Assembly (NCBI GenBank): GCA_964016885.1
Contig: OZ024760.1
Span: 25,172,001-25,236,000 of the forward strand
Source: Eledone cirrhosa
Lineage: Eukaryota
Length of the DNA stretch: 64,000 nt
Direction of reading: 5' to 3'
Both the position numbers and the translations under genes were made by a program. Of the stretch, positions 12,981-63,790 are shown piece by piece (position 1 is the stretch's first letter; each line of letters starts with the position of its first letter). The notes below the pieces were generated by a model that had not been told where the DNA came from, made no database searches, and worked only from the letters and a program-made list of their open reading frames with translations.

Positions 12981-13410
12981 TAATATAAGATCAAAAGATG
13001 GTTAAAGGAGTTCCATATATTTTATTATGCGCATTTCAAAAACAAACATCATCAAACAATAATATTTGTGTTTTCATCAGATAAAACAGGAGAACATGAT
13101 ATGAAGGCTAAAAAAACACTTGTTGATAGTGCAGTTTTAAATCAACATATATATGTTGATTTAAAACTGCACTATCAACAAGTGTTTTTTTAGCCTTCAT
13201 ATCATGTTCTCCTGTTTTATCTGATGAAAACACAAATATTATTGTTTGATGATGTTTGTTTTTGAAATGCGCATAATAAAATATATGGAACTCCTTTAAC
13301 CATCTTTTGATCTTATATTATGCATACTCCAGTCCCACAAACTGTAGAGTGCTTCTTATCCGATATCTGCATTGCTTTATTGTACTACAATAAAACTCAC
13401 CTCCTACATT
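12981..13410 (+). mobile_element. Fold-back HHR element: 340-bp palindrome (12981-13320) plus unique 3' tail, flanked by (TA)n
   Basis: Arms are reverse complements around catatatatg (centre 13150/13151); no mismatch seen by eye. Confidence 0.9.
13215..13281 (+). ncRNA. Type I hammerhead ribozyme (mirror copy on - strand at 13020-13086)
   Basis: Stem I ttttat/ataaaa; CTGATGA; stem II aaa.acaaatattatt/gatgatgtttgt.ttt with G:U pairs; GAA; palindromic stem III ATGCGCAT; H17=A. Confidence 0.85.
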
Positions 13411-14104
13411 ATATATATATATATATATATATATATATATATATATATGAATGTATATATATATATATATATATATATATATATATATATATATATATAT
13501 ATATATATATATATATATGTATAAATGTATATATATATATATATATATATATATATATATATATATATATGTATGAATGTATATATATACATTCATATAT
13601 ATATATATATACATATATATATATATATATATATATATATATATACATGCACCTACATGGATACATACCTTTATATACATACATAAATATACTTACACAC
13701 ATACACACGTGTGTGTTTTAGCAAGCTAAGCTGCAGTATTGTGTGTTGTCGGATTTTTCTAGAAATCAAATTAAACTATACTTACAGACAATGTCTGATG
13801 TTCAAACATCCGTTCTGAGTATGGATGTCCAATGATATCACAGATATCAAAAGGAAATCCTAGTTTTCGATATTCAGTACGGTAACTACCAACGTACAGG
13901 ATGATCACAGTTTTTGTTCAGAATTATACAGGACATTGGGCGAATTATGTGACAGTGACAGGATATGTTTTCTCTCTCTTTGGGGACGAAAAACAAACAT
14001 AAAAGGAAGGTGATAGTAAATTACTATTATAATAATTAGCAAGAGAGAAACAATAAAATAGAGCGTTTCCTCAGACAAATTCGCTGAAAAGTGAAATAGA
14101 GAAA

Positions 14105-14440
14105 CTGTCTTAAGGCCGGACAGGTTGACCATCTTCCCGTTCTGCGGTGGCAAACCACTCATCTGGGATGACACTTGCAGTGAAACTTTCTCCAGCCGCA
14201 ACTGGGTGCAGTCTACGACTAACCTAGTCTCCGCTGTACTTCAGATTGAGGAAGACAAACCCTCCAATTATCGTTCGTTCCGCTCTCTGATAGGTTTGCG
14301 GTCGTGTCCCTAGCAGTGGAGACTTCTGGTGTCCTAGATCCTAAGGCTACCCCCCGAGTTAACACTATAGCTGCTGCGCTAGCTACCTCTAACAGTGAAG
14401 ACCTCTAGTGTCCTTGGCCCTAGAGCTACCTCCATACTTA
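14105..14440 (+). mobile_element. Remnant of a non-LTR retrotransposon restriction-like endonuclease (CRE/HERO-type)
   Basis: LRPDRLTIFPFCGGKPLIWDDTCSETFS...EEDKPSNY, then after a frameshift FAVVSLAVETSGVLDPKA, fits RPDG..PW..GK.L.WD.T / K..KY / F.P.AVET.G; last segment internally duplicated. Confidence 0.65.
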
Positions 14441-14867
14441 CCACCATAGGCGCTTACCTTTGTAAGGAGTAGTAGAAGATATATTTGCGTAAAATGAGTT
14501 GGGCTAAAAATATATTTCTTCATTTTATTAGCGGTTAGAGGGTAACTACGACTACACCCTTTACTCCAAACGCTGAGTTAAAATAGGAAACCGAGCCACT
14601 TGGGGTTCATGATGAGGAGAACGACTAATTAATTACTGTGGCATTAAACAGGCCTATTTGCAACACCATCAGTGTGAAATATAACTAAATTAATACATAT
14701 ATATAATAGTTATACATAAATATATTTCATGTCTCTATAAAATCACCTTGAACTTGACCACCACCTTGACTGACCAGTCTGTCGTGCGCCATTCGGCGCC
14801 GCTGGTCACAGCACGTGCTGTTTTAGCCACACGTTGACGCCATCCCACTGGCTGGGCGGGCAGGCCG

Positions 14868-15144
14868 TAAGTCTAAAATCTGTCTTGAGCCTTTTGGTGC
14901 TTATCCCGGTTTCATGGCGTGAAGCGACTGAGAGTACCAGACTCCCCCCTGGACAGGACGCCAATCCATCGCAGGTTTAAACCACCAGCTATTGCTGGTA
15001 CTCATTTTCAGCTGGGTATACTGGAGCAACGTGAAATAAAGTGTCTTACTCAAGGAAACATCACATCACCCGGTCCGAGAATTGAACTCACATCCTTTCT
15101 TTTGCAACCCTACTGCTCTAACCACCAGGTCATGCGCCTTCACT
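14868..15144 (-). mobile_element. tRNA-derived SINE family 2, near full length
   Basis: Minus strand gtgaaggcgcatgacctggtggttagagc...gagttcaattctc (A/B boxes) followed by ccttgagtaagacactttatttcacgttgctccagt body. Confidence 0.85.
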
Positions 15145-15164
15145 AAGCCATGCATCTCTATGAA

Positions 15165-15353
15165 ATAATTGTTTCTACTTTAGGCACAATGCCAGCAACT
15201 ACCCAGTGCATTACTGGTACTTTATTTTATCGACCCCGTAAGGATGAAAGGCAAAGTTAACCTCGGCGGGATTTGAACTCAGATCGTAGAGGGACGTAAC
15301 TCTGCTGGAAAGCATGGCGTCCGACCCTCTACCGATACTGCCAATTCACCGCG
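15165..15353 (-). mobile_element. tRNA-derived SINE family 1
   Basis: Minus strand gcggtgaattggcagtatcggtag...gagttcaaatccc (A/B boxes) followed by tttgcctttcatccttacggggtcgataaaataaagtacc; at least 12 copies in the window. Confidence 0.9.
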
Positions 15354-60755: not shown

Positions 60756-61289
60756 TTTATCATTGTTAAAGATTTTATTTAAATCCCCCGCCGTGACGTC
60801 TTGTAATGTCCCATTTTTGTGCGCCCCTGTGGCAACTAAAGAAAGATATCTAACGCCTCCCCCCTATTGGGGATTTCGATTATTAAATTTGTTTGTTTTA
60901 ATAATAAGTTTACACTATTGTATGTAAAATCCCCGGCATGCGTTTTTGTATAGTCCCCCTTTTCTTGTGCGCCCCTGTGGCATATAAAGAAATATATCTA
61001 CCTATCTATCTATATATCTATCTATCAATCTATTTCATTCGATCTCTTCATCTGATATCCCCGTTCACCATTCTACAGAATAACCAATATTATTCCATTG
61101 CAAGTGACGTTGACATATACAATTAAATACGTCCGATACTGTTATTTCGTTCGAACACAATATGTGATAGATTCTCAAATGTAATATTTACAGTTGATTA
61201 CACCATTTCTTCCACAACGGCAACCACCACTAGGTTAGATCCAATTTCAACGAGAGATTGGCAACGTATATCTCTTGTGCATGTCAAAT

Positions 61290-62465
61290 GTGTGACAATA
61301 TTTAACATAATATTAATTCGTATCTGTATAGAAGAAACAATGCTGGATATAACAGAACTTTGTAATGTAAACACACATATATTTAGATATATAAGTATAT
61401 CATTTTTTGGGGGGTGGGGGCGCTGAGCCGGGCAATTACACCGGGCCCCCTGCAGTGGTGGGGTCACTAGTGACAATATTAACTTAATATTAATTCGTAT
61501 CTGTATAGGAGAAGAAACAATGCTGGATATACCAGAACTTTGTAATGTAAACACACATATATTTAGATATATATGTATACAATTTTTTTTTTCTGGGGGG
61601 CGGGGGCTGAGCCGGGCAATTACACCGGGTCCCCTACAGTGGTGGGGTCACTAGTGACAATATTAACCTAATATTAATTAGTATCTGTAGAGGAGAAGAA
61701 ACAATGCACGATATACCAGAACTTTGTAATGTAAACACACATATATTTAGATATATATGTATACAATATATTTTTTCTGGGGGGGCGGGGGCTGAGCCGG
61801 GCAATTACACCGGGCCCCCTACAGTGGTGGGGTCAATAGTGACAATATTAACCTAATATTAATTAGTATCTGTATAGCAGAAGAAACAATGCTGGATATA
61901 GCAGAACTTTGTAATGTAAACGCACATATATTTAGATATATAAGTATATCATTTTATTTTTATGCTGAGCCGGGAAAATAGACCGGGCCCCTTACAGTGG
62001 TGGAGTCACTGGTGACAATATTAACCTAATTGGCAGTATCGGTAGAGGGTCGGACGCCATGCTTTCCAGCATAGTTACGTCCCTTTACGATCTGAGTTCA
62101 AATCCCGCCGAGGTTGACTTTGCCTTTCATCCTTACGGGGTCGATAAAATAAAGTACCAGTAATGCACTGGTGAATTGCTGGCCTTGTGCCTAAAGTAGA
62201 AAGAATTAATTCGTATCTGTATAGGAGAAGACACCTTGCTGGCCTCAGCAGAATCTATGTAATGTAAACACATATATTTAGATATATAAGCATATAATTA
62301 GGATGGGGGTAAACCGGGCAACTGCTCCGGGCCCCCTGAAATGTGTGTGTATGTGTGCGTCGCCAATGGCAATAGTTGCCACAATATTAATTCGTGTCTG
62401 AATAGGACTTGAAACATTGCTGGATATAGCAAAAGTTAGAAGAAATGTGTATGTATTGTAAACAC
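61290..62465. repeat. Satellite of about 180 bp (about 6 units), with a SINE family 1 copy inserted at 62029-62205(+)
   Basis: gtgacaata at 61292, 61470, 61654, 61839 and 62012. Confidence 0.85.
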
Positions 62466-62635
62466 ACATTATATATCGATAAAATAAAGTACCAGTAATG
62501 CACTGGGTAATTGCTGGCCTTGTGCCTAAAGTAGAAACAATTATATATATATATATATATATATATATATATATATATATATATATATATATATATATAT
62601 ATATATATTTATATATATATAAGCATGTATGTAAT

Positions 62636-62760
62636 CAGGGCCGGATTTAATGGGGGGGGGGGTAAAAGGGGCTCAGTTGCTCCGGGCCTCATGCAATGGT
62701 GGGTGGCGCCAGGAACAACCGTAGCAAATTGTTTTGGCAATCAGCCAGGCTTTTTTTTAA
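62636..62760 (+). mobile_element. Probable hAT-type transposon end
   Basis: Begins CAGGGCCGGATTTAA followed by gggg.cagttgctccgggcc; resembles the left end at 1364; partner end not seen. Confidence 0.45.
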
Positions 62761-63342
62761 TTTCACTGCACTACTATCACCACCACCACCACCACCACCA
62801 CCGCCACCACCACCACCACTATCGCCACTACTACTACTACTACCACCTCCACTACTACCACCATCACCACCACTACCACCACCACCACCATCATTAACAA
62901 CAACAGCAACAGCAACAACAGCAATGCCGTCCACTGCGAGTGCTTCTAAGTAAGTTTAATGTAAAGTTAAGTGTATTGCAGTCATTTCAAAGATGGCCGC
63001 CTCATCTTATCAACGAGAGAAGAAGAGAGCTTTCTATCAACATACGGCTCTTGTAATCAGTACTGATGGATTCCACTAACGCGCTATCTTGGAAACAATT
63101 TCTACAATTATTGCTCTAATACAAATAATTAATTTTCTCTCTCTCTCTCGATCTCTATATTTCTATCTATCTATCTATCTATCACTCTATATCTCGATCT
63201 ATATATCTATATATACTCTCTCTGTATCTCTTTCTCTGATTCTCTCTCTCATTTCTCTCCTGTGTGTCTCACTTTCTCTCTATTCTCCCGCTGTCTATCA
63301 TCTCCCTCTCTTTCGAACTATATATATATATATATATATATA

Positions 63343-63790
63343 TACGATATTAAATAAATGGAAACTATATTTATCTATCTATCTCTCTATATCTATTTCT
63401 CTCTATCTATCTCTCTATATCTATCTCTCTCTATTTAGTTGCATGCATTTCTTCTTTTTCTTCGTTTTTCTTTCTTTCTTTCTTTTCATAACTGTCCCTA
63501 ATATTTTTTCACTACCAAATCAACTTTTCAAATAGAAGTCGAAGTTGAAAGGTATGTCGAATCTATCTATTTATAAGACTGTTTCATATTGTATTTTGTC
63601 TGAAGAAGGCATAACATATTTTTAATATGATATCCCTGAAATATATATAATGAAATAAATATGGTTTTATAAATATAGTTTCCATTTATTTAATATCGTA
63701 AATATACTCCAAATACTTGTTGAGTGCTTTTATATCAGTTATAAATATTTACTCGTTGTTAACCCAACAATTTAAATAAAACTTTGCATA
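63343..63790 (+). mobile_element. HHR element of the 42256 family; HHR at 63592-63657; short inverted arm at 63343-63375
   Basis: tattttgt-CTGAAGA-agg.ata.catatt-ttt-aatatg.tat.cct-GAA-ATATATAT-A-atgaaata. Confidence 0.8.

Follow-up and report, generated by a model that had tools for sequence, protein, structure and literature searches.

A recurrent bulged hairpin beside insertion ends in likely Hydra-clade Penelope-like elements of Eledone cirrhosa, a putative docking site for the reverse transcriptase

Short retroelement islands in a 64,000-nucleotide (nt) stretch of the Eledone cirrhosa genome (contig OZ024760.1 of assembly GCA_964016885.1, positions 25,172,001 to 25,236,000; hereafter the window) share a small bulged hairpin. 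The elements that carry the hairpin in their terminal repeat probably belong to the Hydra clade of Penelope-like retrotransposons (Penelope-like elements, PLEs). With moderate confidence the hairpin is regarded here as a putative RNA docking site, at which the reverse transcriptase (RT) would bind and start copying just 5' of the structure. The window is AT-rich (31.7% GC) and is split by (TA)n runs into short islands, many of which are fold-back structures with type I hammerhead ribozyme cores. Written as a structure, the motif is Y-ACTC-Y...R-[TT/TC/TA]-GAGT-R, comprising the ACTC arm, a variable upper stem, a loop of 3 to ~80 nt, a 2-nt bulge, and the GAGT arm; the bulge is TT in 16, TC in three, and TA in one of 20 window hairpins. 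A first-pass annotation of this DNA had cited 14 such sites and suggested that they form a second conserved cis-element next to the hammerhead. All 14 are present in the sequence, a further 11 bring the candidate sites to 25, and the suggestion of a second element is now backed by covariation, by conservation across Hydra-clade elements, and by position beside insertion ends.

The motif is more narrowly defined than in the first-pass annotation. A strict descriptor yields 13 matches in the window (two on one element), compared with 1.35+/-1.2 (maximum 5) in 60 island-wise dinucleotide shuffles, and 11 of these matches lie 35-95 nt from a TA run, compared with 0.15 (maximum 2). If one mismatch is tolerated, the overall count shows no clear enrichment (26 vs 18.8+/-4.0), but matches near TA runs remain enriched (17 vs 2.5, maximum 5; 30 shuffles). 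The 25 sites sort into about seven groups plus singletons, and this is also the independent count, because many of the matches are copies within one family. Between site groups, blastn found no match outside the motif at E<=1e-3.

Related elements with intact open reading frames (ORFs) were found in metagenomes from marine samples, where a degenerate RT-motif scan returned 121 stretches at 120 loci. The 707-aa ORF of one locus, L012, contains RWK, DKT, YRDD, and CNCRQKITC, a GIY-YIG-like motif pair, CxxC, and CxH, the features of the published Hydra definition, and 2,778 relatives were found among 8,000 candidates scored. It has no significant match in Pfam, and the best fold matches of its predicted structure (pLDDT 91) are telomerases, with weak scores (E ~1e-9, TM ~0.33); the L012 untranslated region (UTR) has a single Rfam match, at E 2.6. 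Intact Hydra-clade elements are ordered as hammerhead, ~45-55 nt, hairpin 1, ~55-70 nt, hairpin 2, and start codon, the last lying ~15-40 nt beyond hairpin 2. The metagenome hairpins usually have a G-C bottom pair (GCTC/GAGC). Where the ORF is long or its start recognisable (27 loci), two hairpins are present at 18, one at six, and none at three; of all 42 distinct loci whose upstream sequence is long enough, 18 carry two and seven carry one. The background is 29 of 874 sequence windows. Identity among the RT regions of 24 loci with hairpins ranges from 38 to 81%, with a median of 50%. The hairpin at 13325 (window positions 13320-13350) is identical to hairpin 2 of locus L010 (430-460) at 28 of 31 nt, loop included, the bottom pair being changed from A-T to G-C; no other similarity was found between the two.

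A blind search of prokaryote genomes for double hairpins returned 32 stretches, with a rough chance estimate of ~20. One of them, L151, is a Hydra-type element with hammerhead, both hairpins, and ORF on a 2.5-kb contig filed in a bacterial metagenome-assembled genome, where it is likely host contamination; the other 31 have neither hammerhead nor ORF. RT-motif and double-hairpin scans of viral contigs gave no matches. Loci L122, L123/L124, and L132/L139/L140 are bacterial repeat-spacer arrays, which we take to be CRISPR repeats, with a ~36-nt repeat that ends in GTTGAGCAC and could form a similar bulged stem. This resemblance is probably coincidental, the arrays having been selected by the search pattern.

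Insertions end directly upstream of the hairpins. When terminal copies were compared with junctions in metagenome pairs of at least 85% identity, eight of nine distinct pairs were found to end 1-4 nt upstream of a hairpin, either hairpin 1 (L002, L003, L012, L093) or hairpin 2 (L010+, L011-, L005, L072). Pairs of lower identity mostly end elsewhere, with the exception of L040 at 0, and within-locus extension adds ends at -4, -4, -6, and -11. Across five hairpin-2 ends the end position follows the hairpin spacing (r=0.93). The reference often reads TATA or TATAT at the end position, merging with the (TA)n flank, and the six nt upstream of the hairpin are 74% AT. Similarly, the inverted short arm of the window fold-backs stops 4-16 nt before the hairpin in 12 of 12 cases (4-9 nt in 10), and does so although the cleavage site lies 27 nt from the hairpin in one family but 50-57 nt from it in another. 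This comparison comprises 12 arm pairs; two of 17 pairings had scores near 20 and were dropped, and the dropped pairing of 31901 with 31652 had joined two different families. The long arm continues 41-96 nt beyond the hairpin. Hairpin position is tied to the end just 5' of it, that of the short, inverted arm, and not to the downstream TA flank, the distance to which varies over this range. The one-sided PLE tail is, in these elements, hairpin 1 plus spacer.

Telomerase uses a boundary helix, and the short arm could in principle have formed when the first cDNA was copied back on itself and this copy halted at the hairpin, with the long end set by distance from hairpin 1. Self-priming has been proposed for PLE palindromes (PMC3846280), and some arm pairs are almost identical (90/90, 87/88, 88/89). 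In the fold-backs at 23595, 49533, 57650, and 40622 the two arms differ by 10-17%, as much as separate copies do, and in others they are 97-100% identical; the divergence may reflect age or the use of two template RNAs. The cDNA does not contain hairpin 2, so that ends upstream of this hairpin cannot be stops; such ends follow hairpin 2 better than hairpin 1 (n=5), and the spread of hairpin-to-end distances in the window does not suit a fixed spacing. Halting at the hairpin is therefore considered improbable. It is very improbable that the hairpin functions in a different step (as a promoter, in translation, in packaging, or in binding a host protein) and that ends lie nearby only through local TA-rich patches. 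The proximity of hairpin 2 to the start codon, the AT-rich hexamer upstream, and the location of PLE promoters in the pseudo-long terminal repeat (PMC8557442) would suit such a role, yet the whole UTR is AT-rich while ends cluster within ~10 nt of the arm, and the core helix is kept in short non-coding families across thousands of reads.

If the hairpin is instead a docking site for the RT, insertion might proceed as follows. The endonuclease would cut (TA)n, the cut 3' end would pair with the TA-rich patch beside the hairpin-bound RT, and the RT would copy away from the hairpin, which would be left uncopied for that reason. A start at hairpin 2 would give the long arm, with hairpin 1 as its 'tail' (the copies seen in the first-pass annotation), and a start at hairpin 1 would give a tail-less arm; with two hairpins there would thus be two start sites, and the optional 'tail' known from PLEs would follow. 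This scheme would also account for the need of PLEs for tandem-junction read-through or a retained hairpin 1 in order to move again. A broader proposal, to which we give somewhat less than an even chance, is that in this telomerase-related clade the twice-repeated RNA hairpin is a portable start-copying code located 3' of the template and co-varying with RT lineage (G-C, T-A, A-T).

Pairing within the hairpin is maintained through changes on both sides, at the bottom pair and in the upper stem. The bottom pair is G-C in 42, T-A in four, and unpaired in three of 49 metagenome hairpins, and is A-T in all 20 window hairpins. The pair above the bulge is Watson-Crick (C-G, T-A, A-T, or G-C) in 49/49 metagenome and 18/20 window hairpins, where permutation means are 25.5 and 9.0; these pair statistics are drawn from related rather than independent copies, and five of the 25 candidate sites (582, 23410-, 39909-, 57427-, and ~230-) are left out of them. 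Hairpins with such variable loops could not be aligned with MAFFT, and a seed model was therefore made from 10 sequences; it gave 12 weak window matches, only four of them at motif sites. The covariance model used here contains 48 metagenome matches and no window sequence, with a locus nearly identical to 13325 excluded. Its top five matches in the window (57746, 49593-, 50216-, 63706, and 42571) are all sites of the first-pass annotation, and seven of its 11 window matches to E<=10 are motif sites. In the model-fitted alignment 94% of cells are paired, compared with 21-53% in slid registers, and both-sided changes occur in four of six pairs, a result matched by 0 of 500 shuffles. In sequencing reads of family B (2,697-3,003 per run), none of the variants listed falls in the ACTC/GAGT helix or the bulge; they fall in loop and tail, in alignments that favour conserved parts. 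A palindromic DNA site (GAG-NN-CTC) was also considered as the conserved unit and rejected, since it shows no covariation.

Several observations weigh against a docking hairpin in Hydra-clade elements. The CTC/GAG core is almost invariant, so that the covariation comes mostly from two pairs; the T-A bottom pair goes back to one lineage (L002/L070), and pairing at the second upper position is no more frequent in the window than expected (13/20 vs 13.3). Selection of the 5' arms inflates the paired counts, since the script used for it demanded CTC and gave preference to pairing, and in families E, F, and D the arms were chosen manually. E-values of the model's window matches are both weak (0.009-3.6) and approximate. 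In naked-RNA predictions with 30-nt flanks, all four lower pairs have probabilities above 0.5 in six of the 20 window copies, and in ten they do not exceed 0.1; the hairpin is thus not the dominant predicted fold in half of the copies. Of the loci with enough upstream sequence, 17/42 carry no hairpin, and one of the nine close pairs stops 36 nt ahead of hairpin 1. No window family was found to have hairpin 2, and a search of the six frames of the window for PLE ORF motifs found none, so the placement of these families in the clade, which is likely, is made from RNA features of the sequence. Read-through past the usual end of family B is rare (depth 4-6 in two runs, with one diverged contig sharing part of it). 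In the tandem copy of this family a loose look-alike GCAC/GTGC stem follows 4 nt beyond the usual end and might be a variant of hairpin 2. The 172-nt partial tandem itself lies at 23194-23561, and its junction is rare in reads.

Those RNA features agree with what is described for the Hydra clade, namely (TA)n targets, a type I hammerhead with an often palindromic helix III of 2-5 bp, an inverted truncated arm, and a one-sided tail (PMC8557442). The window families share the targets, hammerhead type, inverted truncated arm, and one-sided tail. Their islands terminate at TA runs, consistent with (TA)n insertion; the 12 fold-back elements each have one short and one long arm, as in the insertion unit of endonuclease-positive PLEs; and the core of family B is laid out like those in the published table of Hydra hammerheads. 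Helix III is 2-5 bp in hairpin-bearing islands, whereas in minimal hammerheads of the Penelope/Poseidon type (GAAAC-GTH) it is minimal or absent. As a small control (four islands, three families), minimal GAAAC-GTH islands at 664, 7915, 21062(-), and 28957(-), which probably belong to other PLE clades, have no hairpin; a control search of the metagenome loci gave no minimal hammerheads, and one such hammerhead in locus L022 serves as a control besides the four islands. By eye, the bulged hairpin is present as GCTC/GAGC in three of the six new Hydra-clade consensuses of PMC8557442 (Hydra-2_Amil, Hydra-2_Ajap, and, twice, Hydra-1_Ajap) and only in degenerate forms in Hydra-1_Crog and Hydra-1_Obim; the available portion of that paper makes no mention of it ('stem-loop' occurs 0 times). 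Window copies differ from the Hydra loci in their A-T rather than mostly G-C bottom pair and in tails of up to 96 nt. In published Naiad and Chlamys consensuses, inspected by eye in a layout whose line breaks can hide matches, motif matches lie mostly within ORFs, and a look-alike in the Naiad 3' UTR is probably its selenocysteine insertion sequence (SECIS).

Minimal hammerheads are known from metazoan PLEs and non-LTR (long terminal repeat) retrozymes (PMC4209133; PMC7229834), which resemble the window in having dispersed type I hammerhead stubs of many families per genome; no downstream element is described in the available parts of these papers. Retrozymes form tandem units of 170-400 nt that occur as circular RNA; the window has the one partial tandem. 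There is a precedent in the Poseidon-clade element PAc of Anolis, in which two internal RT start sites bracket the tail downstream of the hammerhead, and which in vitro needs RNA to +172, beyond its start at +111-118 (PMC11167929). PAc thus resembles the proposed mechanism in its two internal starts and in requiring RNA 3' of the first. The Hydra elements add two copies of one covarying hairpin in the UTR, each just 3' of an end, where the PAc study, in its available parts, names no element.

PAc also bears on two other explanations of the end positions. In one, which is unlikely, the signal acts in DNA: the GIY-YIG endonuclease would recognise the hairpin as a cruciform or in single-stranded cDNA and cut the adjacent TA-rich patch, as it resolves a longer intermediate or homes into its own repeat. 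The same end positions are expected from such cutting, and pair counts do not decide between RNA and DNA. Moreover, the tail has been attributed to endonuclease resolution (Craig 2021; PMC8557442), and cutting of plasmid DNA by the D. virilis endonuclease depended on the tail (as cited in PMC11167929). PAc ends, however, coincide with in vitro RT starts on RNA (PMC11167929); a covarying bulged stem suits a single strand, and the GAG-NN-CTC quasi-palindrome lacks covariation of the duplex type in the columns that follow the helix. Processing of the RNA 3' end, with the transcript cut or terminated just upstream of the hairpin and then copied by ordinary 3'-end priming, would explain both classes of end equally well, and RNA-seq read ends do lie on the PAc start sites (PMC11167929). 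It too seems rather unlikely, given that PAc starts internally in vitro without processing, whatever extra 3' sequence is present (PMC11167929).

Structured RNAs that recruit or position an RT include the 3' stem-loops of LINE and R2 elements, telomerase RNA helices, and hepadnavirus epsilon. Those of LINE and R2 elements are located 5' of the start, and every insertion includes a copy of them, whereas the docking hairpin proposed here would lie 3' of the start and be left out. No description of it was found in Rfam or in a literature search that most subscription journals lay outside, and the supplementary figures of the PAc study may show a related structure. What is new is the cis-element; the kind of element that carries it, a Hydra-clade PLE family, was already known.

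At individual sites the first-pass annotation held with some corrections. At 30741 the 3' arm is as given, but its 5' partner lies at 30700, with an upper stem of 5 bp (CAAGA/TCTTG) and a loop of ~60 nt; the hairpin at 31900 ends at 31954 rather than 31965; and that at 48442 has GGGT, with a G.U pair. Location between hammerhead and TA flank applies to the seven of 14 cited sites with a full, canonical type I core upstream on the same strand (13325, 23238-, 29827, 30741, 42571, 63706, and 63875-). At two more (39721 and 40892) the intact core is located only on the inverted arm, and by eye 57746, 49593-, and 31900 retain only the 3' half of the hammerhead, the core at 50216- is degenerate, and 48442 is cut off upstream. 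The families were also thought to be unrelated, in keeping with the lack of cross-group blastn matches outside the motif. They are nevertheless probably related, because the hammerhead architecture and hairpin are common to one PLE clade and reads connect family B to a family-C-type hairpin. A convergent origin in unrelated families was rejected, shared descent being preferred. Window sites are listed by family in Table 1.

Table 1. Bulged hairpins in the window, by family (positions are those of the window; strand in brackets).
Feature	Family	Position	Remarks
Bulged hairpin		13326..13350 (+)	Has a hammerhead core of its own at 13221, cleaved after 13275; the inverted short arm stops at 12983, 7 nt before the hairpin
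Bulged hairpin	B	29828..29846 (+)	Hammerhead core 29762; inverted short arm ends 29687
Bulged hairpin	B	23238..23256 (-)	Hammerhead core 23326(-)
Bulged hairpin	B	23410..23428 (-)	Second copy in 172-nt partial tandem; continues past usual 3' end
Bulged hairpin	B	63878..63896 (-)	Hammerhead core 63962(-)
Bulged hairpin	A	42572..42591 (+)	Hammerhead core 42465; inverted short arm ends 42255
Bulged hairpin	A	63706..63725 (+)	Hammerhead core 63600; short arm ends 63345
Bulged hairpin	A	50218..50237 (-)	Short arm ends near 50516
Bulged hairpin with G.U pair	A	48443..48462 (+)	5'-truncated copy without hammerhead
Bulged hairpin	A-like	39722..39747 (+)	First upper pair broken; intact hammerhead on inverted arm (39484-)
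Bulged hairpin	C	57746..57769 (+)	Top covariance-model match
Bulged hairpin	C	49594..49617 (-)	
Bulged hairpin	C	23731..23754 (+)	One mismatch (GAAT)
Bulged hairpin	G	40892..40916 (+)	Intact hammerhead on inverted arm (40755-)
Bulged hairpin, long loop	F	30700..30772 (+)	Hammerhead core 30544
Bulged hairpin, long loop	F	21897..21992 (-)	
Bulged hairpin, long loop	E	31901..31954 (+)	
Bulged hairpin, long loop	E	42132..42186 (+)	ACCC arm
Bulged hairpin	D	58119..58144 (-)	No canonical hammerhead
Bulged hairpin	D	8925..8950 (+)	No canonical hammerhead
Bulged hairpin	D	23041..23068 (+)	ACAC arm
Bulged hairpin	D	561..587 (+)	ATTC arm; upper stem a different 5 bp

Family D (8613-9029, 22712-23148, 58036-58450(-), and 515-650) combines the hairpin with a non-canonical core, TTGATGA, TTGATAA, or TCGATGA; a clear remainder of the hammerhead was not found in it. 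In Rfam, the best 150 of 435 window matches are all under the gathering score, and nearly all are palindromes matching microRNA models. The window also contains what we take to be a thiolase-like exon (~25420-25560 (-)) and two presumed non-LTR retrotransposon ORF remnants, one resembling an R4/Dong-type restriction-like endonuclease end (~17430-18500 (+)) and the other an L1/Tx1-type zinc-finger end (59193-59846 (-)).

The hairpin addresses the question of how PLE RTs select an RNA and the internal sites at which they start, and how the optional tail arises. The in vitro study of PAc narrowed binding to a 172-nt region; the hairpin offers a candidate of 20-30 nt, which has compensatory pairs, predicts where copying should start, and has cognate ORFs that are intact. 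If the docking interpretation is correct, the hairpin would describe how RNA is anchored in the sister group of telomerase, and would provide a marker for annotating Hydra-clade stubs as well as a minimal signal for RNA-templated insertion. Should the hairpin prove to be a portable code, any RNA bearing it could be inserted at TA repeats.

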